DNA of 64,000 nt from an uncultured Gammaproteobacteria bacterium (GTDB lineage: Bacteria; Patescibacteriota; Patescibacteriia; JAHIZJ01). Below, one piece after another: positions 6,312-55,359 of this stretch. The first letter of the stretch is position 1, and each line of letters starts with the position of its first letter. A program made the position numbers and the translations under genes. Under the pieces are notes generated by a model, which was not told the origin of the DNA, did not search any database, and worked only from the letters and a program-made list of their open reading frames with translations. The DNA lies in NCBI GenBank assembly GCA_964371245.1, contig CAYJKP010000001.1:315042-379041 (forward strand), given 5' to 3'.

Positions 6312-7676
6312 TCACGGAGCAATGATATGTGTGGCTCCGTCCCAGAAAGCCAGCTTCAGGTGGCCGTCTCCCCAGTACTGGAGGCAGTTATTGCCAGGCA
6401 GCCAGAGCGGCGATCCGGCGTAGGTATCCGGCAGGCGGCGGCGGTCCCACAGTCCGACGGTACCGAGGTAGAGCCCACGCTGGTCGCCAGACTCAGCAAA
6501 CGCGTATCTGGTCCGGTCGGGCGAGTAAGCGACAGAAGTCAGATTCGCCGTCGCTACCACTTTTCCGCCGGTTCCGGAGAGCGGATCCACCCAGTAAATG
6601 CCGTAGAAGTCGGCCCAGAGGACCGCGTCAGGCGCTACCCAGCAGAGCTGCAGCGACGCATTCTGCAGGGTGCTAATGCGCATGTAAACGGTGTGAACAC
6701 CGCTCCCGTCGACGCGCATGACGCGGATGATGGCCTGGGTTCCGTACGAATGGTTCACGAATGCGATCAGCGAATCGCCCGGCGAAAACGTCGGGTTGTG
6801 GTCGTAGACGAAGCCCTGCGTCTGGTAGATCCTCCGCACGACGTTCGAGGGCGCGTCATAGAGGTAGATTCCGTCGACATAGGCGCCAAAGGCAAGCCGG
6901 TCGCCGGAATTCGACCAGACATAGTCGTCGCTGGCGTGCGGATTCGGAATCTCCGTCCTGATGCTGCCGTCCCGGTTCGCGATCACGATGCTGTTGTTCG
7001 CTGACGTGTAGGCGACGTACTGGCCGTTGGGCGACACCCGGTACAAGCCCAGGTTGCTCAAGCCGGAAGCCAGCACGCTCCACTCGATTCCGTCGGCTCT
7101 GATGAGGAACAGCTTGTCGCCGCGGACCTGGGTGAGCATGATGTCCGGGCAGGGCTCGAACGTGGCCGAGACCGTGGTCGTGTCCTCGCCGGACAAGGCA
7201 ACAGTCTCAAAATGCGGATAGTAGCCGGGCCGGCGCAGATACACCTCGCACTTGTCGTCGAAGCCGAGGGGAACGTCGGGAATGATCGCCGGCGTCATGA
7301 CGGACAGGAGCGAGTCGTTCAGCGTGATGTACGCCTCGGGCGGGTTTGACAGCAAACGCAGGACGGCCGGCCGGTGTTCAGAGAAGCTGTGGTACACGGC
7401 GGGATTAACCGAGGCGCTGACCACGACCGTCTCGGCGTGCGCGTAGTAGCCGTGGATCGTGAAGGTGACGACATGGTCGCCATAGTCGACGCCGGTGAGC
7501 GCCGCGTCCGTCACCAGGCCGGTGTCAGTGCCGTCGAGCCAGATGGCCGCGCCTGGCGGAAAGGAGCGGCAGTCGATGGTACCGTGCTTCTCGGGTTCGG
7601 TTCCGTTCTGGCTGCAGCCGGCAAACGTGAGAACGAGCGCGGCGCAGATGGTAAGGATAGACAAGGTCGGTCGCAT
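6312..7676 (-). CDS. lipoprotein with PEGA-like domain and TolB-like (PD40/WD40-like) beta-propeller repeats; high-GC (about 65%)
   Basis: signal peptide with lipobox LTFAGC; PEGA-like segment; repeated ...YVAYTS...DGS...WSNSGDRLAF... propeller-like blocks; AAAGGAG RBS. Confidence 0.7.
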   Translation of the reverse strand: MRPTLSILTICAALVLTFAGCSQNGTEPEKHGTIDCRSFPPGAAIWLDGTDTGLVTDAALTGVDYGDHVVTFTIHGYYAHAETVVVSASVNPAVYHSFSEHRPAVLRLLSNPPEAYITLNDSLLSVMTPAIIPDVPLGFDDKCEVYLRRPGYYPHFETVALSGEDTTTVSATFEPCPDIMLTQVRGDKLFLIRADGIEWSVLASGLSNLGLYRVSPNGQYVAYTSANNSIVIANRDGSIRTEIPNPHASDDYVWSNSGDRLAFGAYVDGIYLYDAPSNVVRRIYQTQGFVYDHNPTFSPGDSLIAFVNHSYGTQAIIRVMRVDGSGVHTVYMRISTLQNASLQLCWVAPDAVLWADFYGIYWVDPLSGTGGKVVATANLTSVAYSPDRTRYAFAESGDQRGLYLGTVGLWDRRRLPDTYAGSPLWLPGNNCLQYWGDGHLKLAFWDGATHIIAP

Positions 7677-7910: not shown

Positions 7911-8342
7911 ATGACTGATAAGATTCCTAGAGATAAATTTCCAATAATAACAGCGCTTACAGATGAATTATCATCTTTAAATAGTGGGTTAGAGCTAAAC
8001 ACAAAAGCTAATAGCATATGTCTTGGCCGTATACAAATGGATAAGTCAACAAACCAAAGCACGACAGCTTTAAGCTGCATCCAGACGTTGAGTATCATTA
8101 AAAATACATTTTACATCTACTTGGTTGAGCAACACGGCCAAAATAGTACCTTGGAAAAGTATTCATTTAAACTAACCGACGAGCATAAAGTACCCTTGAA
8201 GCAATATGATAAAGATCCAAAGTCTGGTTCACATGTTCATCTTTTTACAAACGGCAAGAAAGTAAATAAACATATACCATTTCCTGACTCGTTGAAAGAA
8301 ATCGCGAAAGACATTATCCATTTAATCGCACAAAGTAACTAG
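7911..8342 (+). CDS. hypothetical protein (low-GC island)
   Basis: ORF in an about 33% GC segment; no recognisable motif. Confidence 0.4.
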   Translation: MTDKIPRDKFPIITALTDELSSLNSGLELNTKANSICLGRIQMDKSTNQSTTALSCIQTLSIIKNTFYIYLVEQHGQNSTLEKYSFKLTDEHKVPLKQYDKDPKSGSHVHLFTNGKKVNKHIPFPDSLKEIAKDIIHLIAQSN

Positions 8343-8377
8343 TTGTGAAAAATACATCGCCTAACACGGGCTAGCCG

Positions 8378-8809
8378 GTGAGCGAGCCAATTACCACTGA
8401 AATGGGAAAGATAACAGTATATTATTCTCCAATAATTGACGAGGAAGAGAAGAAAATACTCTCTGATGCTTTTCGGCAAGATGTCGATTTTTGTAAATTT
8501 GAGAAAAAGGGTGTTCATGCTGGCGCATATGATGTTGAAATACTCATTAATATTTTCGGTGGCATTGTTGCGTCGGTTTTGTATGATTTAATTAAGAACC
8601 TCTTTAAAAGAAATAGAAAAAACATCATGGATGGTTATAAGAGACCACGTTACACTGTATTGGTTCTTAGAAAGGAAACTGAGTGGATTGTTATCTCGAA
8701 TGTCAACCCCGAAAATAAAATGACGATTTCCATTACATCAGCAAATTCAGTAGATCCCTCAAAAATCGACATCCAATACTCTGATGAAGAGCTATCAAAG
8801 CACCTTTAG
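8378..8809 (+). CDS. hypothetical protein (low-GC island)
   Basis: ORF, no recognisable motif. Confidence 0.4.
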   Translation: MSEPITTEMGKITVYYSPIIDEEEKKILSDAFRQDVDFCKFEKKGVHAGAYDVEILINIFGGIVASVLYDLIKNLFKRNRKNIMDGYKRPRYTVLVLRKETEWIVISNVNPENKMTISITSANSVDPSKIDIQYSDEELSKHL

Positions 8810-8941
8810 ACAAACTATTGACTCGCTCACCCAAATTGCTCGACCACTTTCGCGGTTCGCTCCGCGAGATTATACCGCTACGTTCACTCGCAACTTCGGC
8901 TAGCCCGAAACGTTGTCCGAAATTTTGTAAATTTTCTATCT

Positions 8942-9298
8942 ATGGAAAAAGGCCGTGAAAATATTATAGACATGCGAGAATGGAAAGCTCGTAAAGCGCG
9001 AGAACTTTTTGGCGATGTGGCGGCAGAGATACGGCGAGGAACATTACAAATACACTTGGTAGATGTATCCTCGCTATTTGCTAAGACTGATGAAATCCTT
9101 CATTATGCGCTTGAAGGGCAAGAGCTAGACCCTGATTCTCCTGACTATCAAACACGTTGTGCTGAAGCAAAAAGGGAAATCTTAGGAAACGCAGATGCTA
9201 TTACTGAAGCTTTACCACAATACCCAGATGTTGACTGCCCGGCTGTACGAGAAAGTCTTAACCTGCTTAAGGATTTCACTGAGCAGATCAGAGAATAG
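8942..9298 (+). CDS. hypothetical protein (low-GC island)
   Basis: ORF, no recognisable motif. Confidence 0.4.
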   Translation: MEKGRENIIDMREWKARKARELFGDVAAEIRRGTLQIHLVDVSSLFAKTDEILHYALEGQELDPDSPDYQTRCAEAKREILGNADAITEALPQYPDVDCPAVRESLNLLKDFTEQIRE

Positions 9299-9319
9299 AA
9301 AATTTACAAAACTCCATAC

Positions 9320-9392
9320 AACAGCGTCTATACGACATCAGCCTTCGCTAAAGCTTCAGCTGACAGTCGTATGAAACGCAAACGTTAAGTGA
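9320..9392 (+). repeat. intergenic element E1: AACAGCGTCTA - variable hairpin - ACGCAAACGTTAAG
   Basis: shares both conserved flanks with E2 at 10098-10158; internal hairpin TACGAC...GTCGTA. Confidence 0.5.
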
Positions 9393-9460
9393 CATTTTTG
9401 TGGGCTGGTGTAGATAGCCACTTGCCCGAGGGATCCGCTCCTCTTTTTCACTCAATATAT

Positions 9461-10099
9461 ATGGACAATAGCCAAAAAGCAGTTCACGTATACAACCAAA
9501 TAGCCGAGGACTATGCCAATGTGTTTTCAGAACCCTCTGAACATATCGACGAGTTTTTGGAACTATTACCGACCAATGGAAAGATTTTAGACGTTGGCTG
9601 CGGCAATGGCGTTGATTGTATGTACGTGAAGAACAAGGGTTTCAAAATCGTTGGTGTTGATATGTCAGAAAAGATGCTTGATATCGCAAGAAGCAAATAC
9701 CCTGAAATCGAATTTCGTCTAGGAGATATGCGAAGTCTTCAATTCGATCAAAATGAATTTGATGGCATTATTGCCTCTTGCTCACTTATTCACATTCCTA
9801 AAAAGGACATTCCAAAAACTCTAGGGCAGTTTACACGGTTTCTCAAACACGGTGGTGCAATCTACATCCAATTACAATCTGGAACATCCGAGGAGGTTTT
9901 TGTCGATGAGCCCTTTAAACCAGACGAAAAGCTGTTTGTTAATGTCATTTCACCTGACGAAATCGAACTGCTTTTACACAACGCTGGTTTTAAGATTGTA
10001 CATAAGCATGAAATACAATCACTGAAAAAAGAGGAGCTCGACTATACTCACTTAATCGTCATTGCTCGATATGCCAGCGCCCATAAAAACATCACTTAA
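9461..10099 (+). CDS. class I SAM-dependent methyltransferase
   Basis: motif I ILDVGCGNG and post-I acidic D in VGVDMSEKM; start taken at inner ATG 9461. Confidence 0.8.
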   Translation: MDNSQKAVHVYNQIAEDYANVFSEPSEHIDEFLELLPTNGKILDVGCGNGVDCMYVKNKGFKIVGVDMSEKMLDIARSKYPEIEFRLGDMRSLQFDQNEFDGIIASCSLIHIPKKDIPKTLGQFTRFLKHGGAIYIQLQSGTSEEVFVDEPFKPDEKLFVNVISPDEIELLLHNAGFKIVHKHEIQSLKKEELDYTHLIVIARYASAHKNIT

Positions 10100-10158
10100 C
10101 AGCGTCTATCTGCCATGCGCTACCGCGACACAGCAGATGATACGCAAACGTTAATGAA
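10098..10158 (+). repeat. intergenic element E2: AACAGCGTCTA - variable hairpin - ACGCAAACGTTAAT
   Basis: same flanks as E1; internal hairpin ATCTGC...GCAGAT has a different stem sequence. Confidence 0.5.
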
Positions 10159-10169
10159 ATGATAATCTT

Positions 10170-10946
10170 ATGGAAAAAGGAATAGACTACATCGGCGTCG
10201 GTTGTTGGGGAATAGTAACCAACGATCAAAATCAGATATTGCTGATCAAAAAGAAAATCAATGACTATTGGGAGCGACCCGGTGGAAATGTTGAGGTCGG
10301 CGAACGGCTCGAGGATTGCATTGTCCGGGAGGTAAAAGAAGAAACTGGCATTGAAGCCAGGGTGGCCGGCTTTGTCATGTTTGAACAGGTATTTTTCGGT
10401 CCGGACAAAAAGCATTGGCTGGCGTTTTGCTACCACCTCGAATATATTTCAGGCGAGATAAAAAATATGGAGCCTGAAAAACATGATGACATAAAGTGGT
10501 TTTCATTTTCAAGTTTGCCAAAAAACCTCAGTCCGCATACAGCTAAGGCCATAAATAAATACTTGAATAAATACACTGGCGTCATAATTGAAGAAAGCCT
10601 TGAGAATACTGACGTTTTGAAAGACGTTACGATACTCAAGACGAAAATCGAGCCAGTCACTGACAGACACAAAACGCCGTGGGTGGCTCAATGGAGTCTG
10701 CTCACTTTTGAAATTCCAAATGACCAGGCGGATATCGTTGCCGAGAAGCTGAGTAAATCACTCGACTCTCAACACAGCTGGTATGCTGACTTTAAAAATC
10801 AGGCGATCCATTATATTATTTTTCGAAATAGAATCTTCAAGATTGATCGAACGAGCAAAGAGCAATATAATGAAGCGAAGCAGTATGGATTATCGCTTGG
10901 CATACCAGATTATCAAGTTGACTTTCATCCAGAAGTTACGAAGTAG
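10170..10946 (+). CDS. NUDIX hydrolase fused to an uncharacterised about 130-aa C-terminal domain
   Basis: Nudix box GGNVEVGERLEDCIVREVKEETGIE; C-terminal half has no recognisable motif. Confidence 0.75.
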   Translation: MEKGIDYIGVGCWGIVTNDQNQILLIKKKINDYWERPGGNVEVGERLEDCIVREVKEETGIEARVAGFVMFEQVFFGPDKKHWLAFCYHLEYISGEIKNMEPEKHDDIKWFSFSSLPKNLSPHTAKAINKYLNKYTGVIIEESLENTDVLKDVTILKTKIEPVTDRHKTPWVAQWSLLTFEIPNDQADIVAEKLSKSLDSQHSWYADFKNQAIHYIIFRNRIFKIDRTSKEQYNEAKQYGLSLGIPDYQVDFHPEVTK

Positions 10947-12475: not shown

Positions 12476-13939
12476 TTATTTCTTCAGCGGGTCATGTTTC
12501 GAGAGAACCTCAGTCTTGTCGTTGAACCCGTCTTCGTCCGTATCAGCCTTCATCGGGCTGGTACCGAGCTCGCGCTCGCGCTGGTTGGTGAGGCCGTCGC
12601 CGTCGCTGTCCTGGTCAAATTCCGCGAGGGTTGACTCGACGTCATCAGGCACCGGCCAGGTTTTCGGAAAGATATAGACAGTGAACTGGATATCATCGCG
12701 GATCCCGATTTTCAAGCCGTCATCGCAGGTGTATTGGGCGGCGTAGATGTCGGCCAGGCCCGCTTGTTTGAAGTAGTTTACCTGGCAGAAGTCTTTCGTA
12801 TTTGACGTGTTTTCATATTTGCCGTAGGTATAGTGGTCGGTATAAAAGGTGAACAGGATTTTATCGCTCGGTTTAAACGCACCGATGTATGATGGCGTGA
12901 ATTTACCCGTGACAATTACCTCAGGGTTCGTGCAGTCGCCGTGGAAACGGCCCAGGTCTTTTGAAGCGTCGCCGACCTGCGCGACCACCCGCATGCCCGC
13001 GGCCGAGCAGTACCAATTCGGGTCGACGAAGAGAGCGCCCTCTGGAACGTGCGCGTACCAATCATTTTCATCCACCAGGATCGGCGGTACGGGCTCGATG
13101 ACGATCGGGGCGTTAACGTTCTGATTGGCGTTGGAATTTTGATTCGCGTTCCCGTTGAGATTTACATTGAGGTTCGGCGGCACATTCGTATTGCCGTTCA
13201 GGTTTGCGTTAGGCTGGTTGGTATTCAGGTTGGCATTGCCGTTTTCATTTTCATTCCCCGAGTTTGTGTTGAGATTGATATTCAGGTTCGTATTCTCGTT
13301 CGCGTTGGCATTGGCGTTTTCATTACCGGCGTTCGTGTTTAGGTTACTATTGAGATTACCGTTGTCAATAATCACATTGAGATTCTGATTGGTATTTTCG
13401 TTTCCATTGACGTTGATAATAACGGGTTCGCTCGCATTCGTGTTTATATTCTCATTGTCGGTGTTGCCGGTATCGTTCAGATTCGACCAGACCGGCTCGT
13501 CGCCGTTAACGTTCAAATTCGTATTGTCATTTGCGTTCGCGTTCCTGTTATCATCCGGGATAATCACGCCGCCGATTCCGGAGAAGTCGGGCACCGGCAA
13601 ATCCTTGAGCTCGTCAGCGGCATACTCGTGCTTTTGCAGGGCCTGGAGTTCGCTGGCTGACACCTGTTTGACTGGTAACCAGTCTTCGGCCAGGTATTTA
13701 AAAAAGCCGACCACTGATTTCTGTTCAGCTACTTCCTCGATAATGTCAGTTCCATTATTTTGCGATTGATTTTTTGGGTTATTCGTTGGCTGAATGGTCG
13801 TGTTTTGATTTACATCCGTGCCGCGAAAATAAACAACCGCCTGCCAGGATATGACGGCGATCAAGATAACAGCTGCGCCAATAACGAGGCCAGTAAGGAC
13901 GGCGATACCGAGCTCGTTGAATTTTTGCCTTCTACTCAT
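12476..13939 (-). CDS. membrane-anchored protein with a long Asn-rich low-complexity region and C-terminal thrombospondin type-3-like Ca-binding repeats
   Basis: N-terminal TM helix; about 150 aa of NxN/NANLNTN repeats; C-terminal DQDSDGDGLTNQRE...DTDEDGFND (DxDxDG). Confidence 0.65.
   Translation of the reverse strand: MSRRQKFNELGIAVLTGLVIGAAVILIAVISWQAVVYFRGTDVNQNTTIQPTNNPKNQSQNNGTDIIEEVAEQKSVVGFFKYLAEDWLPVKQVSASELQALQKHEYAADELKDLPVPDFSGIGGVIIPDDNRNANANDNTNLNVNGDEPVWSNLNDTGNTDNENINTNASEPVIINVNGNENTNQNLNVIIDNGNLNSNLNTNAGNENANANANENTNLNINLNTNSGNENENGNANLNTNQPNANLNGNTNVPPNLNVNLNGNANQNSNANQNVNAPIVIEPVPPILVDENDWYAHVPEGALFVDPNWYCSAAGMRVVAQVGDASKDLGRFHGDCTNPEVIVTGKFTPSYIGAFKPSDKILFTFYTDHYTYGKYENTSNTKDFCQVNYFKQAGLADIYAAQYTCDDGLKIGIRDDIQFTVYIFPKTWPVPDDVESTLAEFDQDSDGDGLTNQRERELGTSPMKADTDEDGFNDKTEVLSKHDPLKK
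13100..13560 (-). repeat. degenerate short tandem repeats encoding the Asn-rich tract (GTT/ATT-rich on + strand)
   Basis: seen in sequence; coding low-complexity. Confidence 0.6.
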
Positions 13940-14007
13940 ACGGGTGATGTTTAATAAATACTCTTTAACTCAATATACCACGGGCGCATTGTAACTGACC
14001 AGGATTA

Positions 14008-14086
14008 AATTCAAAATTCAAAAGGTAAAATTATTGTACCCGCTAACGGCGGGATTCTATCATTTTTAATTGTTAATTTTGAATTT
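14008..14086 (+). repeat. AATTCAAAATT-arm hairpin element, copy A (arms AAATTCAAAATTCAAAAGG / AATTTTGAATTT; core CCCGC-taacg-GCGGG)
   Basis: one of four copies sharing arm sequences and architecture, with a different compensating core stem. Confidence 0.6.
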
Positions 14087-14207
14087 CCTGTATTCACATT
14101 AATTAAAAATAAAACGGACAGCCCTTGTGCGGACGGATGTCCGTACGAGGCTGCCCGGCCGGCGTGGCTACCCTAGGCGGGTGTCAGCCGGCGGCCGTGG
14201 TGGAAGA

Positions 14208-14996
14208 TCAGGCCCGCGTCATGCCGTTGAAGTTCGGCTTGATGACGTGGTACCGTCCCTGCCAGGCCGCGTTGGTCGTGAGAGCGATCTGCGCCATGGT
14301 TCCGACGTACTGGCCGTTCGCGATGTTGGCCACGTCGGTGTTCTGCCCCGCCGTAACCGCGAAGTCGTCGCAGGTGTTGGCGGTGGTGCTCATCGGGATC
14401 GAGTTCTCGTCGTTCTTGTAGGTACGGGTCGTCGTCGTGTTCGCGTTCTGTTCGCGGGCATCGGCGGCGGTCTTCGTGTCGGTGATCAGGGCGGCGTCGG
14501 TCTGCGCGTTGGATCTGTTTTGCGCCTCCTGCCGTGTCGAAGTAGCGACCAGCGGGTTACCCGAGAAGCCGACCTCGAAGGAAGAAGGAACGGAAGCCAG
14601 GGTGCCGGCAAGGAAGGTCGCGTTGGCTCTGCCCTCGCTTCCTACCGTGACCGCGATGGTCTGCTTCGCGATCCAGCTCGATTCCTCAGCGGTGTTGTTG
14701 TTGATCGTCAGCTCGTTCTCGGCATAGGTCTTGCTCGTGGTAGCCGTGAACTGGTCCACCCTACCCGCGGCCTCGCAGGTAATACCGGTGGAAGTGCTGA
14801 TGATGGTCTCGCTGCTGACGGCGTCGGCGGTCGATGTGCCGGCGGTCAGCGCGTCCGGGGCGATGGTCACGACCTGCGCGTCATTGTCGAACACCTGCGG
14901 GCTGATGGCCGTATTGGTGTTGGCGCTGCAGAACGTGGCCGGGATCAGGAACACAACCGCGAACAGTGCGAGTATCCAGAACTGCGTTCTCCTCAT
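14208..14996 (-). CDS. secreted Thr/Ala/Asn-rich protein, high-GC
   Basis: GGAGGG RBS 7 nt upstream of ATG 14996 (complement); signal peptide MRRTQFWILALFAVVFLIPATFCSA; terminator on minus strand at about 14110-14150. Confidence 0.6.
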   Translation of the reverse strand: MRRTQFWILALFAVVFLIPATFCSANTNTAISPQVFDNDAQVVTIAPDALTAGTSTADAVSSETIISTSTGITCEAAGRVDQFTATTSKTYAENELTINNNTAEESSWIAKQTIAVTVGSEGRANATFLAGTLASVPSSFEVGFSGNPLVATSTRQEAQNRSNAQTDAALITDTKTAADAREQNANTTTTRTYKNDENSIPMSTTANTCDDFAVTAGQNTDVANIANGQYVGTMAQIALTTNAAWQGRYHVIKPNFNGMTRA

Positions 14997-15282
14997 GGGG
15001 AATCCCTCCAAGAGGTGACGGTCACTACAATCAGCGTGTTTAAGCACCGATGTCGTGTGTTACGCTTGGTCCTTTCGCGGGTCCTCCAATTCCCGAAAGG
15101 GTGTTGCCGTCGCAGAAACGACGGATTAGCGGGCATTGATACAAAACACTCTACTATAAGAATATCGACAAATTAAAGAGAAATCAAGTTTTTGTCAAGA
15201 CTTTTTTGATGCCGCCGGCATTTTACTTTCTTTTTCCGGCGTTTTTGATACAATGAAGGCAATAATACGTCATAATAATACT

Positions 15283-16080
15283 ATGGAAACACCAACCACT
15301 ACCGCCTTCGTCCAACCTGACACGCGCTTTCGGCGGTTGCGCACGTTTAATCTGGCCATGTTCGTTCTCCACCTCGGCCAGGGGATCGCGATGCTTATTT
15401 TGAGCAATGATTTCAGTGTGCCAGTCACGACCGCCTTTGTTGAATACAGCCGATCAGCCGGGAAGCTTGAGCCGGTACTCAACCAAATATTCAGTCTTAA
15501 ACTCGGTCCGTTGGTCGCCGGTTTTTTGTTTCTCTCGGCCTTGGCCCATCTCATGATCTCACTGCCACGGATCTACGACTGGTACGTCGCCAATTTGAAG
15601 CGCGGCCTGAACCTGGCGCGCTGGATCGAGTATGCCTTTAGCTCCTCGATCATGATTGTCGTCATCTCTATGCTGGTCGGAATGTACGATGGCATCAGCC
15701 TTATGTTCGCGTTTTTTCTTAACATGATGATGATTTTATTCGGCTGGGTGATGGAAGTGCACAATCAAACAACCCAGAAGACTAATTGGACGTCATATAT
15801 CTTCGGCTGTATCGCCGGCGCGATCCCGTGGGTGGGTGTTGCGCTCTATCTGTTTTTGTCAGGCAGCGGCAATGCCAAAGCGCCGACATTTGTCTATTGG
15901 ATTTTCTTTTCTATCTTTCTGTTTTTCAATGTCTTCGCAATAAACATGATTCTCCAGTATAAGAAAGTCGGGCCGTGGCGCGATTATCTCTATGGCGAGC
16001 GTGCCTATATCATCCTCAGCCTGGTAGCAAAGTCATTGCTCGCCTGGCAGGTCTGGGCCGGAACATTGCGGCCGGTATAA
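15283..16080 (+). CDS. heliorhodopsin (alternative upstream start at 15253)
   Basis: 7-TM; RWIEYAFSSSIMIVVI, ILFGWVMEVHNQT, FGCIAGAIPWVGVALY and YGERAYIILSLVAKSLLAWQVWAGTL (Schiff-base Lys in VAKS) match the heliorhodopsin family as recalled for HeR 48C12; TGATACAAT extended -10 at 15241-15249. Confidence 0.8.
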   Translation: METPTTTAFVQPDTRFRRLRTFNLAMFVLHLGQGIAMLILSNDFSVPVTTAFVEYSRSAGKLEPVLNQIFSLKLGPLVAGFLFLSALAHLMISLPRIYDWYVANLKRGLNLARWIEYAFSSSIMIVVISMLVGMYDGISLMFAFFLNMMMILFGWVMEVHNQTTQKTNWTSYIFGCIAGAIPWVGVALYLFLSGSGNAKAPTFVYWIFFSIFLFFNVFAINMILQYKKVGPWRDYLYGERAYIILSLVAKSLLAWQVWAGTLRPV

Positions 16081-16091
16081 TAAGCAATTAA

Positions 16092-16160
16092 GAATTCAAA
16101 ATTAAGAATTAAAAATGTCGGTAGGCGACTGCGTCGCTAGAATAATATTTAGTACGATTA
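16092..16160 (+). repeat. AATTCAAAATT-arm hairpin element, copy B (core GCGAC-tgc-GTCGC)
   Basis: GAATTCAAAATTAAGAATTAAAAATGTCGGT precedes the hairpin, as in copies C and D. Confidence 0.6.
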
Positions 16161-16177
16161 TTAGTTAAGCCTTTTTT

Positions 16178-16666
16178 ATGGAAACACCCGCCGAACAAAA
16201 ACCCGTGAATCCGAGTAGCCGGCCAGTAACGCCAATCTGGTTTTTCCTCCTTATCATTATTGGACTAATTATTGTAATAGCCTTTGGTTATCTCGCCTAC
16301 ACAACAATTAATAGTAATGAAAATACAGAAGCAATTCACGTTGTGGCAAAAGTCAATAAATTAGAAGGAATTCCGAATGCCGAGGCTATCATCAAGGCGT
16401 GTCACCTGAAAAGATTTAATGCGCCGCGCTATGATCCTGTTCAAGTAGAATCACGCCCTGACGGGAAAATCAGGGTGATGTATCCTTGCTGTGACCTGCC
16501 TTATTATATCCTTGATTCAAATGCCGAATACCTATGCGATATAGGCGGTATGCCAAAACACATACCATACCCAGACGAATGTCCTGATTCGATTGCCATA
16601 TATGATAATGGAACATATATTGATTGTTCAACCTATAATACCAAAACAACTCCATTTTATCCCTAA
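16178..16666 (+). CDS. membrane-anchored Cys-rich protein, N-terminal METPAEQKPV motif
   Basis: N-terminal tail plus single TM helix; paralogous N-terminus with the next gene. Confidence 0.55.
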   Translation: METPAEQKPVNPSSRPVTPIWFFLLIIIGLIIVIAFGYLAYTTINSNENTEAIHVVAKVNKLEGIPNAEAIIKACHLKRFNAPRYDPVQVESRPDGKIRVMYPCCDLPYYILDSNAEYLCDIGGMPKHIPYPDECPDSIAIYDNGTYIDCSTYNTKTTPFYP

Positions 16667-16752
16667 TAACATTATTTTATAGCATAGACAACGAAGTCAT
16701 AGAAAAACCACGACAGTAAAACATTTGGATTATTAATTAGATACAAATTTGT

Positions 16753-17502
16753 ATGGAAACACCAGTTGAACAAAAACCCGTTGGCTCAGTAGAGCAGCCA
16801 GTTAAGCCAATTGAAAAACCAACGAAGAAACATCACCGTCTCCGCACGACGCTGATCGTCTTGGCTATTATCATTGTTGTGTTCGGAGTTGGCATCGCCG
16901 CCACCGGACTGATTACAATACCGGGTCTCTCCGATATCCTCGGTACCAATACGCCAAAAGACCTGGGCATAAAAGCCAGCCAGGAGGCGTTGACCAGTTT
17001 GGAAAAGAAAATGCCGGTGACGATTGAGGGCAGCGCGGCGGAATTATGCCTGGCCTGCAACCAGACGTATTCGGGCGTGGTTTCAGTTACCGCCAACCGT
17101 ACGTCCGAAGAGATGACTTCCTTTCTCAAGCTCTGGCCGCGCCAGGAAGATGATATTTTAAAGAATACTCAGGTAAAATTTATTGACGGCGGTCTAGAAA
17201 TATCAACTAAGCTGAATAAATATATTCAAGCGCCCGTCTACGTGAAGGTGTTGGTCGAGCGAACGTCAAATAAAACCGTACGCCTTAATATCACCCAGGG
17301 CAAGATCGGCATTTTCAACGTGCCGGAAAAATACCTCCGCCAGGCGAACGACTTTTTCCAGGACCTTGTAAATAACCGCCTAGCCGATGTGACCGGCTTT
17401 TCCATGGACCAGCTTGAATATCACAATGGGTACTCGACATTTTCCGGTACCTATCCAGCAGTGGTAAAGCCGGCGGCAGGAAAGTGGACGGAAGCGTTTT
17501 AA
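16753..17502 (+). CDS. membrane-anchored extracellular protein, N-terminal METPVEQKPV motif
   Basis: N-terminal tail plus TM helix; shares the METPxEQKPV N-terminus. Confidence 0.55.
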   Translation: METPVEQKPVGSVEQPVKPIEKPTKKHHRLRTTLIVLAIIIVVFGVGIAATGLITIPGLSDILGTNTPKDLGIKASQEALTSLEKKMPVTIEGSAAELCLACNQTYSGVVSVTANRTSEEMTSFLKLWPRQEDDILKNTQVKFIDGGLEISTKLNKYIQAPVYVKVLVERTSNKTVRLNITQGKIGIFNVPEKYLRQANDFFQDLVNNRLADVTGFSMDQLEYHNGYSTFSGTYPAVVKPAAGKWTEAF

Positions 17503-17588
17503 AAAGACGACCACAGATTGACATACCGGGCGCGGCCATGATATTGTGGCCGCGTCGGTTTTCGTTTCATCCAACCACGGAGGGGTGC

Positions 17589-18008
17589 ATGAACTCGACG
17601 ATGTGGTCGTGGAAGCAGTGGGGGAAACTGGTCCTCTACGACGTGTTCTTTCTGATCGTGATCGGGATCGCCCTAACAGCCGCCAGTCATCGCAGCATCT
17701 TTGGTCGACTGGTTTGGTCGGCTGGCCTGGCGGGCTTTTCCGGACTGATCGGACTGGTCTTCAGCATCGGGCCGAGATATTTCGTCAACGTCGACAACCA
17801 GCCCGCTCGGATCGTGCTCTGGCTCGTTTTCAGCGCGGCAGTCATCGGCCCGCTGGCACTCGTTACCCTCTGGTCCTGGGAACTGAAGGCCGGTTTGGAC
17901 GCAATCGCGCTGATAGGCGGCGGCCTGGCTGGTTACTTCTGGAGCCAGCTTGACCGCTGGCGCCGCACCCTCAGGGCTGGCAGTGTCCAGCCGTCGCGCC
18001 TGACGTAA
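17589..18008 (+). CDS. hypothetical 4-TM membrane protein, high-GC
   Basis: GGAGGGG RBS 5 nt upstream of ATG 17589; hydrophobic; about 60% GC. Confidence 0.5.
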   Translation: MNSTMWSWKQWGKLVLYDVFFLIVIGIALTAASHRSIFGRLVWSAGLAGFSGLIGLVFSIGPRYFVNVDNQPARIVLWLVFSAAVIGPLALVTLWSWELKAGLDAIALIGGGLAGYFWSQLDRWRRTLRAGSVQPSRLT

Positions 18009-18053
18009 TCCGTCGGGCCTTTTAATTTTCGCACTATAACACAGGTTTTTAAA

Positions 18054-18078
18054 TAAAAAATCCGGAATATGCCGGAAA
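18054..18078 (-). terminator. terminator of ABC permease gene (TCCGG-aatatg-CCGGA with A-run)
   Basis: hairpin with T-run on the minus strand. Confidence 0.45.
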
Positions 18079-18097
18079 TATAATGCCTAAACGAAAA

Positions 18098-19195
18098 TTA
18101 CTGCGCTCGTATCCGAAAGCCTTTCCAGGCCAAGACAAATGACGCCACGATCCAGCCGCCGAGAATAGCCAAGGCGGTCGGATAATCGAACGGCGTGCGG
18201 CCGTCGATCGAAATGCCGCGCAATATTTTTAGGAGAGAGGTTAGGGGCAGAAAGTCAACTATTTTTCCGACCGCTTTTGGCAGCATGTCGGGCGAGAAAA
18301 AGACGCCGGACAGAAACATCATCGGCGTGGTAATCGCGTTCGCCATCGCTTCGGCTGTATTTACGGTCTTCGCCTGGCCGGCCACGAAGAAGCCGATGTT
18401 CAAGAACACGATTGTTCCCACGAGCGTTGTCAGGGCCAGCCAGACATAGCTGCCGTAGACCTGGACGTGAAAGACAAACCGGCCGACCCCGATAATCAAG
18501 GCAATTTGAATCAGGGCGAGGAAAAGGTAATTACCGATTTCAGAAATCAAATAACTGCGGATATTGATCGGCGTGGCTATCAGCCGTTTTAATATTTTTC
18601 GTTCGCGATACCGGGTGATGCCGACCGCAATGCCGATAATGGAGGAAAACATGATCGCCATGCCGAGAATGCCCGGCATGATGAAGTCGAGGTATTTAAT
18701 GTTGTGGCCTTGGACGCCTTCAGATTTGACGAGAAAAAGTTTCGGCGTGCCCGTGCTCTGGAGGGTGTAGTCGTTTAAGAACTGGTTAACCACAGTGACG
18801 ATGATCTGGCTCTGTTGATTGCTGCCGTCGATGATGACGTCAAAGGAAATCGGTTCTTTTTGCTCTTTCGGATTGACCGTTCCGAATTCTTTTGGAATAA
18901 CAATGATGCCCGCCAGCTCGCTTTTTTTCATTTGCTCGCGTGCCGCATCGATTGTGCCGAAATCCTTCTGATAAAAAACATTAAGCCCCATGAGCTGGCT
19001 GATTAATTGTCGCGAGGTGTCGTTCTTCGCTTCATCAATGAACTGGACGTTAAATTTCTGCGGCGTGTCAAAACGGAACAGGCCGAAGATGATCAAAAAC
19101 AAAAGCGGGAACAGTAGCGACCAAAAAAGCGACTGTCGATCCCGGAAGGTCATTTTGATATTGGCGACGAACAGCCGCCAGGTCGGGTTATTCAC
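18098..19195 (-). CDS. ABC-2 family transporter permease
   Basis: 6-TM ABC-2 topology; 8-nt overlap with the upstream ATPase gene. Confidence 0.75.
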   Translation of the reverse strand: MNNPTWRLFVANIKMTFRDRQSLFWSLLFPLLFLIIFGLFRFDTPQKFNVQFIDEAKNDTSRQLISQLMGLNVFYQKDFGTIDAAREQMKKSELAGIIVIPKEFGTVNPKEQKEPISFDVIIDGSNQQSQIIVTVVNQFLNDYTLQSTGTPKLFLVKSEGVQGHNIKYLDFIMPGILGMAIMFSSIIGIAVGITRYRERKILKRLIATPINIRSYLISEIGNYLFLALIQIALIIGVGRFVFHVQVYGSYVWLALTTLVGTIVFLNIGFFVAGQAKTVNTAEAMANAITTPMMFLSGVFFSPDMLPKAVGKIVDFLPLTSLLKILRGISIDGRTPFDYPTALAILGGWIVASFVLAWKGFRIRAQ

Positions 19196-20117
19196 GGAGC
19201 CGGCTCCCGGTTAGATGTAAGAACACGTCCTCGAGGTTGGCGCGCGTAATCTCAATGTCGCGCAAGGGATTATTTTGCTCAAGCGCCCAACGGATCAGCG
19301 GCGGCAGGGTTTCAGAGGCATGAGTGATCTGGAGGCGATAGATGTCTTCGCCGTTTTTTTCGGATTCCTTCACGCCCGGTATTGTCAGAAATATTTTCGG
19401 ATCCACGTTTTTCTCGATCTTGAAATGCAGATGGGCGGTCGCCTGGAGCTGTTTGATCAAATTCGCGGGCGAATCAAGCGCCACGACTTTGCCATGGTCA
19501 ATGATGCCGACGCGGTCGCAGAGCTCTTCTGCCTCTTCCATATAATGCGAGGTGAGGACGACGGTCCGTCCCTGGCTATTTATTTTTCGGATGAAGTCCC
19601 ACATGTGCCGCCGCGCTTGCGGATCCAAACCGGTGGTCGGTTCGTCGAGAAAAACGACTTCCGGTTCGTTCACCAGGCTGACAGCGATTGAGAAACGCTG
19701 TTGCTGACCGCCTGAGAGTTCTTTGACGAGCGCTTTTCGTTTTTCCGACAGCTCGACGATTTCGAGCAGTTCAGCCGCGTCGGCCTGTTTCGGATAAAAA
19801 CTTCCGAAGAGCTTCAGGATTTCCATCAGATTCAAGTAATCAAAAAAAGACGAGGATTGCAGCTGGATGCCGATGCGTTGTTTCACTTTCTGTACCTCTT
19901 TCCGTGAATCAAGGCCGAGCACCGAGGTGCTGCCGCGGGTGGGGTTTTGCAGGCCTTCGATGATTTCAAGAGTGGTTGTCTTACCGGCGCCATTCGGGCC
20001 AAGTAAGCCAAAAATTTCGCCTTTCTTGATCGAAAAGGAGACGCCGTCAACGGCCGTGAGCTCACCGCCGGGTTGGGGGAATATTTTGACGAGATTGTTT
20101 ACCTCGATGACCGACAT
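19188..20117 (-). CDS. ABC transporter ATP-binding protein
   Basis: Walker A GLLGPNGAGKTTT, signature LSGGQQQR, Walker B VVFLDEPT. Confidence 0.9.
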   Translation of the reverse strand: MSVIEVNNLVKIFPQPGGELTAVDGVSFSIKKGEIFGLLGPNGAGKTTTLEIIEGLQNPTRGSTSVLGLDSRKEVQKVKQRIGIQLQSSSFFDYLNLMEILKLFGSFYPKQADAAELLEIVELSEKRKALVKELSGGQQQRFSIAVSLVNEPEVVFLDEPTTGLDPQARRHMWDFIRKINSQGRTVVLTSHYMEEAEELCDRVGIIDHGKVVALDSPANLIKQLQATAHLHFKIEKNVDPKIFLTIPGVKESEKNGEDIYRLQITHASETLPPLIRWALEQNNPLRDIEITRANLEDVFLHLTGSRLRE

Positions 20118-20691: not shown

Positions 20692-21084
20692 ATGGCCGCA
20701 CGTATCGCCGGAGTTACCCTCCCACAGAACAAACGCATCGAATTCGGACTAACCTATGTCTATGGCGTGGGGCATTCCTCGGTGCTGAAAATATTGGCGG
20801 CGACGAAAATATCGCCCGACATCCGCACCCAGGATCTGACCACCGAACAAATAAAATCGTTGAGCGACTATATTACGAAGAATTTAATAGTTGAAGGTGA
20901 ATTGCGCCGCGTGCGAACTGGCAATGTGAAGCGATTAAAGGATATCGGAGCCTACCGGGGCACCCGGCACACCAAAGGACTGCCGGTTCGCGGCCAACGC
21001 ACCCGCACGAACACCCGGACGGTCCGCGGCAACATCCGTCATACGATGGGCTCGGGCCGCCGACCCTCAGCCGAAAAGACATAA
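20692..21084 (+). CDS. rpsM: 30S ribosomal protein S13
   Basis: [12 protein letters not shown]...LTYVYGVG S13 N-terminus. Confidence 0.9.
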
Positions 21085-21098
21085 TCTAACGATCACCC

Positions 21099-21560
21099 AT
21101 GGCAGAACAACAACCAGCGAAAGCGGAAGAAAAAAATGAACCAGCCGTCGAGGCTGAAAAAACCGATACCAAGGCGAAGCCGGCGTATCGCAAGAAAAAA
21201 AAGACGCGAAAATTCGTTACCCGCGGGATTGCTCATATTTCCGCGACCTACAATAACACGATCGTCGCAATCAGCGATCCTGAGGGGAATGTGCTGGGCT
21301 GGTCTTCGGCCGGTCAAAACGGATTTAAGGGTCCGAAGAAAGCGACGCCGTATGCGGCCGGTATCATTGTCCGATCGCTGATGGACAAACTGCGGGACTA
21401 CGGCTTGCGCGAAGTCGACGTAAAGGTAAAGGGCGTCGGTTCTGGACGCGAGGCGGCCATCCGCGGTCTCAACGCTCAGGGTTTAAACATATTATCAATC
21501 AAAGACATAACGCCGGTACCGCATAACGGTCCTCGGCCGCGCAAGGTGCGCCGAGTTTAA
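21099..21560 (+). CDS. rpsK: 30S ribosomal protein S11 (Lys-rich N-terminal extension)
   Basis: GIAHISATYNNTIVAISDPEGNVLGWSSAG... S11 core. Confidence 0.9.
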   Translation: MAEQQPAKAEEKNEPAVEAEKTDTKAKPAYRKKKKTRKFVTRGIAHISATYNNTIVAISDPEGNVLGWSSAGQNGFKGPKKATPYAAGIIVRSLMDKLRDYGLREVDVKVKGVGSGREAAIRGLNAQGLNILSIKDITPVPHNGPRPRKVRRV

Positions 21561-21577
21561 GGCGAAGGATATTTATT

Positions 21578-22207: not shown

Positions 22208-22228
22208 ATAATTAGATAAGCCACTCTT

Positions 22229-24407: not shown

Positions 24408-24410
24408 GAT

Positions 24411-24501
24411 AATTCAAAATTCAAAATTCAGAAGTAAAAATGATGGTACGCCGCCGCTTGTGCGGCGGGAAACATTCATTATACATTTTGCATTTTGAAT
24501 T
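24411..24501 (+). repeat. AATTCAAAATT-arm hairpin element, copy C (arms AATTCAAAATTCAAAATTCAGAA / CATTTTGCATTTTGAATT; core CCGCCGC-ttgt-GCGGCGG)
   Basis: between rpsI stop and flippase start; same architecture as copies A, B and D. Confidence 0.65.
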
Positions 24502-25982
24502 ATTACTTTACGATGACGCCAAGCTATCACCCAGATCGAATAGCCCGGAATACCTCGTACCTGACGATTGCCCTGACCGCCCAAAAGGTACTCTCCTTCG
24601 TATATTTTATTTACATTTCGCGGTCGATCGGTAGTGAAGAAATCGGCCGCTATCTCTTTGCGCTGTCGTTAACGACCATTGTCGGCGTTTTTATTGACAT
24701 TGGATTAAATCCGGTACTGACGCGTGAAATTGCGAAGGATCCGCAAAAAACCCACCTCTATTTAAATACCACTTTTTCACTGAAACTTCTTCTGGCTGTG
24801 CTCGCGTACGGCGCCGTTTTTTTGTTTATCAATCTGCCATTTTTAGGCTATCCGGCTGAGACGAAACACCTAGTCTATCTCTCAGGCCTTGTCATGATAT
24901 TTGATACCTTTGTTTTGAGCTTTTATTCAATCTTTCGCGGCTATCAAGTTCTGAAATACGAGTCGCTGGGCGTCATTCTCAATAAAATCGTGGTGATGGG
25001 CTTGGGTGTTTTATTTATTTTGATGCACAAGGGTACACTCTTTTTGGTGCTGGCAATTCTTTTCGGGAGCATGTTTAACATTGTGTACACCGCGACTTTA
25101 TTGATTCGCAAGGTGCAGTGGCGCCCGCGATTTTACCTTGATAAAAATGTTTTGAAAGCGCTGCTGCGGATTGCGCTACCGTTCGCCGTGGCCAGCATAT
25201 TTACAGTCATTTACGGTTCGATTGATTCAGTCCTGCTCAACATGCTCAGCGGTGCCCGCGGCAACAGTTTTGTTGGCTGGTATGGCACTGCCTATAAACT
25301 CACATACTCATTTCAGTTCATTCCAATCGCGGTTGGGGCGGCTGTCTTTCCGGCGATGAGTTCGTATTTTATTTCGTCAAAGGCCTTATTGGCGCGGACC
25401 TTTGAACGGGCATCGTATTATCTGCTCGTGATCGTCATGCCGATCGTGTTCGGCGTTTTCGCGGTTGCCGAAAAACTCATTCTCCGGCTCTGGGGCAATG
25501 CCTTCGGTACCTCAATCCATCCGTTACAAATCTTGATTTTTAGCTTGATCTTCGTTTTTCTCACCTTTCCGATCGGGGCATTGTTAAACGCCAGTAACCG
25601 CCAAACGCGCAATACGATCAATATCGGCATTGCCATGGTCGTTAATATTATTTTAAATTTAATCCTGATACCGAAATATACGTTTATCGGCACGAGTATT
25701 TCCTCGCTGGTCTCGACCTTCATTCTTTTTGCCCTCGGTTTGTCGGTCGTCCGTCAAACTATCACCGTGAACTGGCGGTATCTCGTCACCATTGTGTTCA
25801 AAACGCTGGTCTCAGCCCTGATTATGGTTGGCATTCTATTGGCCTTGAAGGAAAGAGTATCGTTTATCATATTAATTCCGCTGGGCGTCGTGATATATTT
25901 TCTGGCACTTTTCCTGTTTCGGGGCTTTGGCCAAAACGAGTATAAACGGATTTTTCACGTCGTCCTGCGGCGACTTTCATGA
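24495..25982 (+). CDS. MOP-superfamily flippase (polysaccharide biosynthesis protein, Wzx/MurJ-like)
   Basis: about 14 TM helices; operon with two glycosyltransferases. Confidence 0.6.
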   Translation: MNYYFTMTPSYHPDRIARNTSYLTIALTAQKVLSFVYFIYISRSIGSEEIGRYLFALSLTTIVGVFIDIGLNPVLTREIAKDPQKTHLYLNTTFSLKLLLAVLAYGAVFLFINLPFLGYPAETKHLVYLSGLVMIFDTFVLSFYSIFRGYQVLKYESLGVILNKIVVMGLGVLFILMHKGTLFLVLAILFGSMFNIVYTATLLIRKVQWRPRFYLDKNVLKALLRIALPFAVASIFTVIYGSIDSVLLNMLSGARGNSFVGWYGTAYKLTYSFQFIPIAVGAAVFPAMSSYFISSKALLARTFERASYYLLVIVMPIVFGVFAVAEKLILRLWGNAFGTSIHPLQILIFSLIFVFLTFPIGALLNASNRQTRNTINIGIAMVVNIILNLILIPKYTFIGTSISSLVSTFILFALGLSVVRQTITVNWRYLVTIVFKTLVSALIMVGILLALKERVSFIILIPLGVVIYFLALFLFRGFGQNEYKRIFHVVLRRLS

Positions 25983-55249: not shown

Positions 55250-55263
55250 GGATAAGTTTACCA

Positions 55264-55339
55264 ATTCAAAATTCAGAATTAAGAAGGAAGAATGTCGGTT
55301 GTCCCGTTACGGGACCACAATAATTATTACTTCTGAATT
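55264..55339 (+). repeat. AATTCAAAATT-arm hairpin element, copy D (arms AATTCAAAATTCAGAATT / CTTCTGAATT; core GTCCCG-tta-CGGGAC), inside the csoR leader
   Basis: same architecture as copies A, B and C; AAGAATGTCGGTT precedes the hairpin as in B. Confidence 0.65.
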
Positions 55340-55359
55340 ATTAATTTTTCATTGTCCCT

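Follow-up and report, generated by a model that had tools for sequence, protein, structure and literature searches.

A heliorhodopsin gene from an uncultured member of the Patescibacteria and a membrane-anchored protein family that recurs beside heliorhodopsin genes

Heliorhodopsin (HeR) partner systems with experimental support include photolyase, glutamine synthetase, and the ABC transporter OmrDE (PMC11109279, PMC9769723). The groups listed in the survey of HeR neighbors do not include Patescibacteria (PMC11109279), and the occurrence of HeRs in CPR/ABY1 bacteria, as well as their SLVAK motif, has already been reported (PMC9166423). The locus considered here lies in a 64-kb stretch of DNA (64,000 nucleotides [nt]; hereafter, the window) and compares with these systems in two respects. 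Its HeR resembles TaHeR (6IS6) and 48C12 (6SU3) in the counterion glutamate, the SxxxK Schiff-base lysine, two conserved histidines, and a length of about 260 amino acids (aa). A second gene, encoding a protein of 249 aa (p249), is a same-strand neighbor of HeR, which is the criterion applied in the partner studies (PMC11109279, PMC9769723), but p249-like proteins are not among the ten published neighbor groups, and the bulk of p249 is extracytoplasmic, whereas partner-contact residues of HeR were sought in its intracellular loops (PMC11109279). The HeR itself is already known, the interpretations of its surroundings as a cassette and as a set of paralogous partners are refuted, and p249 remains as the one neighborhood lead.

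The explanation that we favor, with a probability of roughly 0.6 for the whole, combines a native chromosomal HeR gene of an uncultured Patescibacteria bacterium, whose nearest relatives are ABY1/Kerfeldbacteria-like, with a family of dispersed palindromes, the origin of a neighboring gene (p162) by duplication and insertion, and a loose coupling of HeR to p249. The HeR gene (15283..16080, plus strand) encodes 265 aa and was identified as a heliorhodopsin in the first-pass annotation, an assignment confirmed by Pfam (PF18761, E = 3.8e-97, 324.8 bits, cutoff 26.7), by the NCBIfam HeR equivalog (NF038020, 334.4 bits, cutoff 100), and by alignment to solved HeRs. The Pfam profile is covered over its full length (1-242/242), and the closest solved structure is TaHeR (6is6, E = 9.5e-79). 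The key residues are H30, H89, the counterion E116 (codon 15628-15630), S246, and the Schiff-base lysine K250 (codon 16030-16032), with RWIEYAFSSSIMIV at position 113 of the product, FGCIAGAIPWVG at 174, and SLVAKSLLAWQ at 246. Within RWIEYAF of TM3, E116 aligns with the glutamate of TaHeR, in the counterion column marked by the E108D mutant (7clj), and K250, within the SLVAK of TM7 (SxxxK), aligns with the TM7 lysine of 6is6_A (AKS). This TaHeR residue is the Schiff-base lysine, K238 in TaHeR numbering.

Judged by its sequence, the window HeR carries all that protonated Schiff-base binding of retinal requires and is an ordinary, already annotated heliorhodopsin of the light-sensor kind, with nothing structurally notable. 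The identical protein is present in public databases with Patescibacteria as its source, and many Patescibacteria HeRs are 66 to 84% identical to it. Of the two possible starts initially offered, 15283 stands, since the databases carry the 265-aa form, and 15253 does not, since this earlier ATG reads as an isoleucine codon in L010, a 93% relative. An arginine-rich segment (DTRFRRLR) precedes TM1 and hints indirectly at the inverted HeR topology, in which the N-terminus is cytoplasmic. The G+C content at third codon positions (GC3) is 0.66, which is native-like. The host genome is tiny, at 1.18 Mb.

Palindromic elements of about 90 nt occur four times in the window, each time downstream of genes, and none is assigned a strand: copy A (13999..14093; nhmmer E = 1.9e-19), copy B (16084..16174; E = 1e-15), copy C (24410..24508, directly after rpsI; E = 2.5e-23), and copy D (55261..55352, intergenic; E = 4.6e-19). 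The 25-mer AATTCAAAATTAAGAATTAAAAATG has four matches with three or fewer mismatches in the 64-kb window, where none is expected. Copy A is an inverted repeat with 35-nt arms, AT rich, around a GC-rich core hairpin; it is situated between two minus-strand genes, 3' of a high-GC gene and 5' of a TSP3-repeat gene, and its predicted fold (-23.6 kcal/mol) exceeds that of shuffled sequences (z = -4.05 and -5.19). Folding is stronger in copy C (-36.7 kcal/mol, z = -7.0) and weaker in copy D (z = -1.7). The GC core differs among copies yet stays self-complementary, and the arms are conserved. Copy B fills the gap between the HeR stop and the start of the 162-aa gene. Its left arm is intact, its core is unlike that of the other copies, and its right arm is degenerate; the predicted fold is no stronger than that of shuffled sequence (z = -0.27). 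A repeat had been correctly noted at both 14008 and 16092, but the second was not confirmed as a hairpin. Outside the window species, copies were found only in L010, which has an intact ortholog of copy B (9887-9978) and an ortholog of copy C (17670-17768).

These AT-armed, GC-cored palindromes form one dispersed intergenic family located downstream of genes. Like REP/MITE-like repeats and bidirectional intrinsic terminators, they are short, dispersed, intergenic, imperfect palindromes 3' of genes, with conserved arms, varying GC stems, and a presence that differs between related genomes. They differ in matching no Rfam family at gathering score and in having no T-run directly after the GC stem; a scan of 13500-18200 for canonical terminators (GC stem with a T-run within 0 to 2 nt) flagged neither copy A nor copy B, and the T-rich tract belongs to the distal 3' arm and lies several bases past the GC core. 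The elements may act as hairpins at transcript ends, either as terminators or as RNA stabilizers, rather than as transposon ends.

The position of copies A and B on either side of a high-GC gene and HeR had suggested that the repeats delimit a mobile or regulated cassette. The high-GC gene (14208..14996, minus strand, 262 aa), which encodes a secreted protein, is divergent from HeR and is as first described, with a G+C content of 0.63 and a signal-peptide-like N-terminus; no domain was recognizable in Pfam or NCBIfam. Its GC3 of 0.86, against 0.55 to 0.67 in typical genes here, makes it a compositional outlier, and one pair of arms is 96% complementary across 25 nt. The GC3 of HeR, however, is native, and the bracketing is not a special arrangement, with the remaining copies, C and D, bordering unrelated genes. 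Homologs of the high-GC gene occupy the equivalent place in L010 (79% identity, G+C content of 0.64) and in L049, an 84% relative (47% identity, G+C content of 0.63). L010 keeps the high-GC gene, HeR, and p249 with the downstream element only, and L049 retains the gene pair with neither copy. Moreover, copy A covaries not with HeR but with the adjacent insertion of the TSP3-repeat gene (12476..13939, minus strand), which encodes an Asn-rich protein of 487 aa (PF18884, E = 1.8e-9): a segment including both (12498-14106) is missing from L010. Because copy A is missing at the orthologous place in L010 and the copy B site in L049 is an empty 39-nt spacer, the idea that the two copies delimit a mobile or coregulated unit is rejected and retains almost no credence.

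The same relatives bear on the interval between HeR and p249. This spacer is 39 nt in L049, with no element; 118 nt in L010, including a palindrome; and 672 nt in the window, including a palindrome and a new gene, p162. In the window and in L010, the intervening palindrome is a possible terminator, which counts against a coupling of HeR and p249. The spacer grew stepwise, from the state in L049 through that in L010 to that in the window.

The new gene (16178..16666, plus strand, GC3 of 0.35) specifies 162 aa, consisting of a borrowed N-terminus of 20 codons, one TM helix, and an ectodomain with six cysteines. It is present on 23 contigs of the window species and absent from L010, L004, L025, and L049, and its matches among 5.8 billion clusters amount to a single 99% copy. 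As initially claimed, the two open reading frames downstream of HeR begin METP(A/V)EQKPV (METPAEQKPV at 16178..16666 and METPVEQKPV at 16753..17502), each followed by one hydrophobic helix. They had been regarded as paralogous METP partners, a relationship that fails: a BLASTP alignment of the two products covers only residues 1-37/1-45 (18 of 45 identical), and the p249 family profile compared with p162 by hhalign yields a probability of 24% over only 15 columns, their ectodomains being unrelated. Paralogy was accordingly rejected for lack of homology across the ectodomains, and p162 is a species-specific orphan that has only an 81-bp 5' segment (approximately) in common with p249.

That segment is a DNA duplicate. 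Copy 1 (16156..16236, plus strand) runs from about 22 nt before the ATG through codon 20 at the start of p162, and copy 2 (16727..16811, plus strand), the original 5' end of p249, is 88% identical to the single copy in L010, where positions 9970-10059 align both to 16147-16236 and to 16723-16812 of the window. The two window copies are 76 to 78% identical, with a 34-nt repeat at 88%. According to these alignments, p162 arose through a low-GC insertion of about 575 bp carrying a diverged duplicate of the p249 leader and first 20 codons, and since the 5' duplicate came in with p162, the two genes share only about their first 20 codons.

The duplicated 5' end of p249 is sufficient by itself to account for the METPxEQKPV common to p162 and p249. 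A functional N-terminal signal, serving targeting or translational regulation in a set of HeR-associated proteins, could be imagined from the fact that ATGGAAACACC begins three consecutive genes, two of which have 10 residues in common; ATGGAAACNCC occurs only three times in 64 kb, all at these gene starts, against 0.12 expected. Such a signal is very improbable. The similarity reaches into the untranslated leader and stops after codon 20, and this extent fits a duplication of DNA. Nor is METPxEQKPV a family signature: it is confined to the five closest p249 homologs, among the 120 best HeR matches just 3, the query's own entry included, start with METP, and HeR N-termini vary widely, that of the 84% relative being MDTT.

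The gene for p249 (16753..17502, plus strand) belongs to a large unnamed single-TM family with 919 cluster representatives. The protein has a basic cytoplasmic tail and a TM helix at about residues 29 to 51, and the remainder, about 190 aa, makes up an extracytoplasmic domain. The window p249 matches no Pfam family, and neither PF11209 nor PF09911 is reached at gathering score; remote relatives give subthreshold matches to DUF2140 (9 of 145) and LmeA (6 of 145), with a best E value of 1.1e-5, and weak fold matches include CETP, LBP, BPI, takeout/beta-carotene-binding protein, and YceB. LmeA is a BPI-like lipid binder of the TULIP class (PMC7643837). The nearest likeness of the p249 ectodomain, a weak one, is thus to LmeA (PF11209), DUF2140/YpmS, and the TULIP fold (CETP, BPI, LBP, and YceB), and the domain may weakly be termed LmeA/DUF2140/TULIP-like. 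One remote member has its domain fused to a Ser/Thr kinase, as expected for a ligand-binding ectodomain, and the genes near HeR-less p249 include envelope functions (a PBP with alanine racemase; polysaccharide deacetylases; Peptidase_S11, FtsX, and M23; MurB). We infer that p249 would be an N-terminally anchored extracytoplasmic protein that works in the cell envelope, with a domain that binds a hydrophobic or lipid ligand as LmeA, DUF2140, and TULIP proteins do.

The first-pass annotation had proposed a conserved HeR neighborhood, which holds for the p249 family and not for p162, and p249 is also often away from HeR. Of about 26 distinct loci, 7 have a member of the family adjoining HeR, in four arrangements: HeR followed by p249 (window species, L010, and L049), p249 followed by HeR (L008/L011), p249 followed by HeR and a Pyr_excise gene (L014 and L018), and HeR followed by a 94-aa gene, p249, and MurB (L009). 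HeR is the most frequent specific neighbor of p249 within 4 kb (6 of 33 representative loci), and the HeR-adjacent members are spread over three clades of the p249 tree. Counted from the other side, and against a coupling, a p249 homolog seems to be present on the contigs of only about 7 of the 120 closest HeRs, as judged mostly from contigs of matching length; five such pairs were confirmed at their loci (L010, L049, L008/L011, L009, and L014). The recurrence, which exceeds chance expectation, in four arrangements and with HeR as the top specific neighbor, makes a functional linkage of HeR and p249 a modest lead, unproven.

The adjacency could instead be meaningless, if p249 borders a hot spot of recombination or insertion at which HeR, an accessory gene subject to frequent transfer, landed several times by chance. 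In close relatives without HeR, its place on the corresponding side of p249 is taken by a DDE transposase in L045 and by a phage-type integrase in L047, so p249 may simply border an insertion hot spot; in L045, a homolog of the TSP3 protein also adjoins the DDE transposase. The HeR segment is indeed indel rich and of mixed base composition, with GC3 values between 0.31 and 0.86 and with lineage-specific insertions of the TSP3 gene, p162, and the palindromes. HeR is missing within 6 to 10 kb of p249 at approximately 19 of the 26 evaluable loci, or about three quarters. L034 belongs to these, but its contig matches in length (229,512 bp) that reported for HeR P0075 and so probably bears a HeR elsewhere. 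Against a hot spot stand the four arrangements, each of which pairs these two families on one strand, with gaps down to 10 to 39 nt (L009 and L049); nor does any second specific family appear beside p249 with such frequency. For 4 or more of 20 lineages, the binomial tail is 1.2e-6 at a chance rate of 0.004 and remains 6e-4 at a fivefold inflated rate of 0.02. Chance adjacency is thus possible but doubtful, and the preferred interpretation is that p249 and HeR are loosely coupled in function in some lineages, with no obligate complex, HeR perhaps serving as the light-sensing partner and p249 as the envelope or lipid-handling partner.

A more specific role is unlikely: the p249 family might be a HeR accessory in some Patescibacteria, acting either as a scavenger and deliverer of retinal or another hydrophobic ligand or as an envelope effector under light control by HeR. 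If so, p249 would be the first extracytoplasmic partner of HeR. In its boldest form, p249 would be a dedicated accessory, an anchored lipid-binding protein that captures environmental or host retinal or carotenoid for HeR in a bacterium unable to make retinal. This proposal draws on the recurrent adjacency, on the lipid and carotenoid carriers among the p249 fold matches, and on the inferred topology, which places the p249 ectodomain on the same side as the HeR C-terminus. It also has precedents, in that rhodopsin-encoding Saccharibacteria (CPR) lack blh and have been proposed to import retinal, and TaHeR, the closest solved relative of the window HeR, takes up retinal via a lateral opening (PMC9296517). 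Dedicated delivery is nevertheless quite improbable, given that most HeRs of the clade have no p249 neighbor and most p249 genes no HeR neighbor, that the family, with its many representatives and its kinase fusion, is far larger than the HeR-linked subset, and that the fold evidence is weak.

Further genes lie beyond p249. A small, polytopic membrane protein (139 aa; 17589..18008, plus strand, GC3 of 0.78) belongs to no Pfam or NCBIfam family and was found only in the window species and L010. The ABC-2 type transporter identified by Pfam (18098..20117, minus strand; permease, 18098..19195; ATPase, 19188..20117) differs from OmrDE in lying on the strand opposite HeR and in tracking p249 rather than HeR, being syntenic with p249 (L010, L012, and L045) even in relatives that lack HeR.

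The heliorhodopsin (HeR) gene of the window (15283..16080) encodes a 265-aa product that matches the Pfam Heliorhodopsin profile end to end (E = 3.8e-97, profile positions 1-242 of 242) and scores 334 bits against the NCBIfam HeR equivalog, whose cutoff is 100. Its nearest solved structure is TaHeR (6is6, E = 9.5e-79), followed by 48C12. Glu116 aligns to the position occupied by Asp in 7clj, the entry for the E108D mutant of TaHeR, and Lys250, in the motif SLVAK, aligns to the TM7 lysine of TaHeR, which we take to be the Schiff-base lysine. These full-length matches and the two residues in key columns establish that the gene was correctly called as a heliorhodopsin. The start is at 15283, giving the 265-aa form found in databases; the upstream ATG reads as Ile in L010, a compared locus from a relative whose p249 is 93% identical to that of the window. 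Judged by its sequence, the protein is a typical, ordinary member of a family that is already known, and HeRs of CPR bacteria, class ABY1 included, have been published along with their SLVAK motif (PMC9166423).

The other genes named in the first-pass annotation were also recovered in place by ORF listing and direct reading, and that description is for the most part accurate. A high-GC secreted-protein gene (14208..14996, minus strand, 262 aa) precedes HeR, which is followed by a 162-aa orphan gene, p162 (16178..16666), and by the gene for p249, a 249-aa single-TM protein (16753..17502). Farther on come a 139-aa membrane protein gene (17589..18008) and an ABC-2 permease/ATPase pair on the minus strand (18098-20117). 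On the other side, also on the minus strand, is a gene (12476-13939) for a 487-aa protein that contains long low-complexity tracts rich in Asn and carries a bacterial TSP3 repeat at its C-terminus; this TSP3-repeat gene is missing in L010, and its homologue adjoins a DDE transposase in another relative (L045). Gene calls are identical in public assemblies of the source organism, the longest contig of which is 1,175,835 bp, and the closest relatives that bear a name are "Patescibacteria group bacterium" and Candidatus Kerfeldbacteria.

The p162 and p249 products had been described as paralogs on the basis of a shared METPxEQKPV motif. Their BLASTP alignment is limited to the first 37 to 45 residues, and the p249-family profile does not recognize the p162 ectodomain; the ectodomains are unrelated, which rules out their paralogy. 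A single segment of L010 (9970-10059), comprising the p249 leader and first 20 codons, matches two stretches of the window, 16147-16236 and 16723-16812, with identities of 78% for copy 1 and 88% for copy 2. Among 5.8 billion clusters, p162 has no homologues except one 99% variant, and it is carried by 23 contigs of the source species; its origin was sought by tblastn against 50,697 phage records and in Pfam (E ≤ 1) and NCBIfam, all without a match. Its GC3 is 0.35, versus 0.55 to 0.67 in typical genes. The duplicated leader, the near-absence of homologues, and the low GC3 together indicate that p162 is a young, lineage-specific gene carrying a duplicate of its neighbor's leader and N-terminus. 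Nor is METP a conserved signature of either HeR or p249: the full motif is restricted to the five closest p249 homologues, and among the 120 top-scoring HeR hits just 3, the query's own entry included, start with METP. HeR N-termini vary freely, that of the relative with 84% identity beginning MDTT.

It had also been proposed that two hairpin repeats, copy A upstream and copy B downstream, bracket HeR as a mobile or regulated cassette. The high-GC gene, HeR, and p249 are all present in L010, from which window positions 12498-14106 (the TSP3-repeat gene and copy A) are absent and in which intact palindromes occur 3' of HeR and 3' of rpsI. The same three genes are present in L049 (p249 84% identical), where the HeR-p249 gap is 39 nt and contains no palindrome. 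Comparison of these two loci with the window excludes the cassette, and the palindromes are insertion-polymorphic elements rather than borders of a unit moving with HeR. It also indicates that the HeR-p249 spacer, at first 39 nt, lengthened to 118 nt (with the palindrome) and then to 672 nt (with the palindrome and p162). Both false leads, cassette and paralogs, are thus cleared as artefacts of recent insertions and are replaced by a documented history of insertion and duplication, a clear small case of new-gene birth through capture of a neighbor's leader and N-terminus.

The 25-mer AATTCAAAATTAAGAATTAAAAATG occurs four times in the window at ≤3 mismatches (expected, 0), and a profile built from the palindrome copies detects exactly four elements across the window: A (13999-14093), B (16084-16174), C (24410-24508), and D (55261-55352). 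All four are intergenic and 3' of a gene, copy C being directly 3' of rpsI in both the window and L010. The conserved ribosomal-protein/rpoA block (20692-24407; rpsM, rpsK, rpsD, rpoA, rplQ, rplM, and rpsI, with infA ahead) lies beyond the variable segment. Each element consists of AT-rich conserved arms enclosing a GC-rich core, and the cores vary in sequence between copies, although each is self-complementary. Copies A and C fold much better than shuffled sequences (z = -4 to -7) and copy D marginally so (z = -1.7), and copy B, which has lost its right arm, folds no better than shuffles (z = -0.27). We infer that the palindromes act as transcript-end hairpins. They are missed by a simple terminator scan, since their T-rich stretch forms the distal arm instead of a run abutting the GC stem. 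RNAalifold applied to five copies yields only 3 compensatory pairs, and the covariation term is positive; because the outer arms are invariant, they are uninformative. An Rfam scan of the whole window returns three tRNAs only, with no match to the palindromes.

The high-GC gene has a GC3 of 0.86. Homologues are placed divergently beside HeR, as in the window, in L010 (8016-8792) and L049 (113-841), with protein identities to the window of 79% and 47%, respectively; HeR identities at the same loci are 90% and 84%. Since both its location and its G+C content (near 0.63 at all three loci) are maintained, the gene is not a recent arrival, and its product appears to be a fast-evolving secreted protein of persistently unusual composition. 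Searches of 50,697 phage records by tblastn, of Pfam (E ≤ 1), and of NCBIfam return no match to it, and a single-sequence structure model is unusable (pLDDT 33). A strong compositional mosaic also occurs at 6312-10099, where a PEGA/Tricorn-like gene (6312..7676, minus strand) has a GC3 of 0.82 and the next four small genes (7911..10099) have GC3 values of 0.31 to 0.40; comparison of two adjacent tandem 143-aa ORFs in this region, at 7911 and 8378, ruled out their paralogy.

A word-indexed search yields 31 homologues of p249, and a full search of 1.84 billion representatives with a family profile raises this to 919 (E ≤ 1e-3), of which 524 reach E ≤ 1e-10. The family is large and widespread, without a name or prior characterization. 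Its members are built of about 240 aa, with a basic cytoplasmic tail, a single TM helix, and a conserved ectodomain. In the AF2 model of p249 the ectodomain is confident (overall pLDDT 81), and CETP and LBP rank top in Foldseek. Among 145 remote members, subthreshold matches are to DUF2140 (9), LmeA (6), and TamB (2); at curated thresholds p249 falls outside LmeA and DUF2140, and the family profile finds nothing meaningful among PDB sequences (best E = 0.56). LmeA itself, from the mycobacterial envelope, binds phospholipids and is a BPI-like TULIP protein (PMC7643837). These matches and the model point, weakly but consistently, to an ectodomain that would bind a lipid or hydrophobic ligand. 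One remote member from the representative search (P0240, 540 aa) has a Ser/Thr kinase domain linked by a TM segment to an ectodomain like that of p249, a fusion suggesting that this type of domain could work outside the cytoplasm as a sensor or as a ligand-binding module. A single-cell Patescibacteria genome (L016) contains tandem p249-family genes (9311-9931 and 10001-10657) with 35% and 45% identity to p249 of the window.

Loci of the p249 family were gathered blind to HeR, by exact look-ups and by genome and metagenome scans, and HeR was searched for afterwards. HeR is adjacent to p249 on the same strand at seven distinct loci, which show four gene orders. HeR precedes p249 in the window species, L010, and L049. 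It follows p249 in L008/L011, where LiaF, cupin, and EamA genes are found to one side and DUF378 to the other. The third order, in L014 and L018, is lipoprotein, p249, HeR, pyrimidine-dimer glycosylase, and TrpRS, and the fourth, in L009, is HeR, a 94-aa gene, p249, and MurB, with gaps of 10 to 19 nt. On the p249 tree these loci are distributed over three clades. Among genes up to 4 kb from p249, HeR is the top recurrent specific neighbor (6 of 33 representative loci), equalled only by generic ABC ATPases. The binomial probability of at least four independent adjacencies in 20 lineages is 1.2e-6 if the chance per lineage is 0.4% and 6e-4 if it is 2%. The conserved HeR neighborhood that had been suggested thus holds for p249, but not for the METP motif or the orphan p162, and about 19 evaluable p249 loci have no HeR within 6 to 10 kb. 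One of these loci (L034) is on a contig that probably carries HeR elsewhere, its length of 229,512 bp being equal to that given for the contig of HeR P0075.

Four findings speak against a coupling of function: such loci; the small number of the 120 nearest HeRs that share a contig with p249; the transposase or integrase that relatives without HeR have at the corresponding p249 flank; and the placement of other p249 genes amid envelope genes (PBPs, alanine racemase, Peptidase_S11, FtsX, M23, and polysaccharide deacetylases). We put the probability that the HeR-p249 coupling is real at roughly 40%, hot-spot coincidence taking most of the remainder, and read p249 as first of all a protein of the envelope, coupled to HeR loosely and only in some lineages. 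The recurrent link in Patescibacteria between HeR and an anchored TULIP/LmeA-like family is the new lead that survives, at modest strength.

Surveyed HeR neighbors include glutaredoxin/GSHPx and histidine-kinase components (PMC8612252); none of the published neighbor groups matches p249, and the groups listed in a second survey (PMC11109279) do not include Patescibacteria. For the HeR partners that have experimental support (photolyase, glutamine synthetase, and an ABC transporter), the first hint came from gene adjacency (PMC11109279, PMC9769723). If the HeR-p249 link is real, it would indicate an envelope-side or chromophore-supply function of HeR systems, which is directly testable. Saccharibacteria (CPR) with rhodopsins lack blh, and retinal import has been proposed for them; TaHeR-type proteins load retinal via a lateral opening (PMC9296517). 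CPR bacteria in general may need retinal from outside. These proposals provide a setting in which p249 might hand off retinal or lipid, an unlikely role on present analysis.

The ABC-2 pair lies 1 to 4 kb 3' of p249 homologues, including at loci without HeR (L012 and L045), so this synteny belongs to p249 and not to HeR. An ABC transporter as HeR partner (compare PMC11109279) was set aside here, as the ABC-2 genes lie on the strand opposite HeR and follow p249 in relatives without HeR. A gene for a pyrimidine-dimer DNA glycosylase (PF03013, E = 3.6e-27; L014 11673-12005 and L018 11672-12010) begins 4 nt past the HeR stop in two MAGs of Patescibacteria, making this a second class of UV-repair enzyme linked to HeR, beside the published HeR-photolyase pair.
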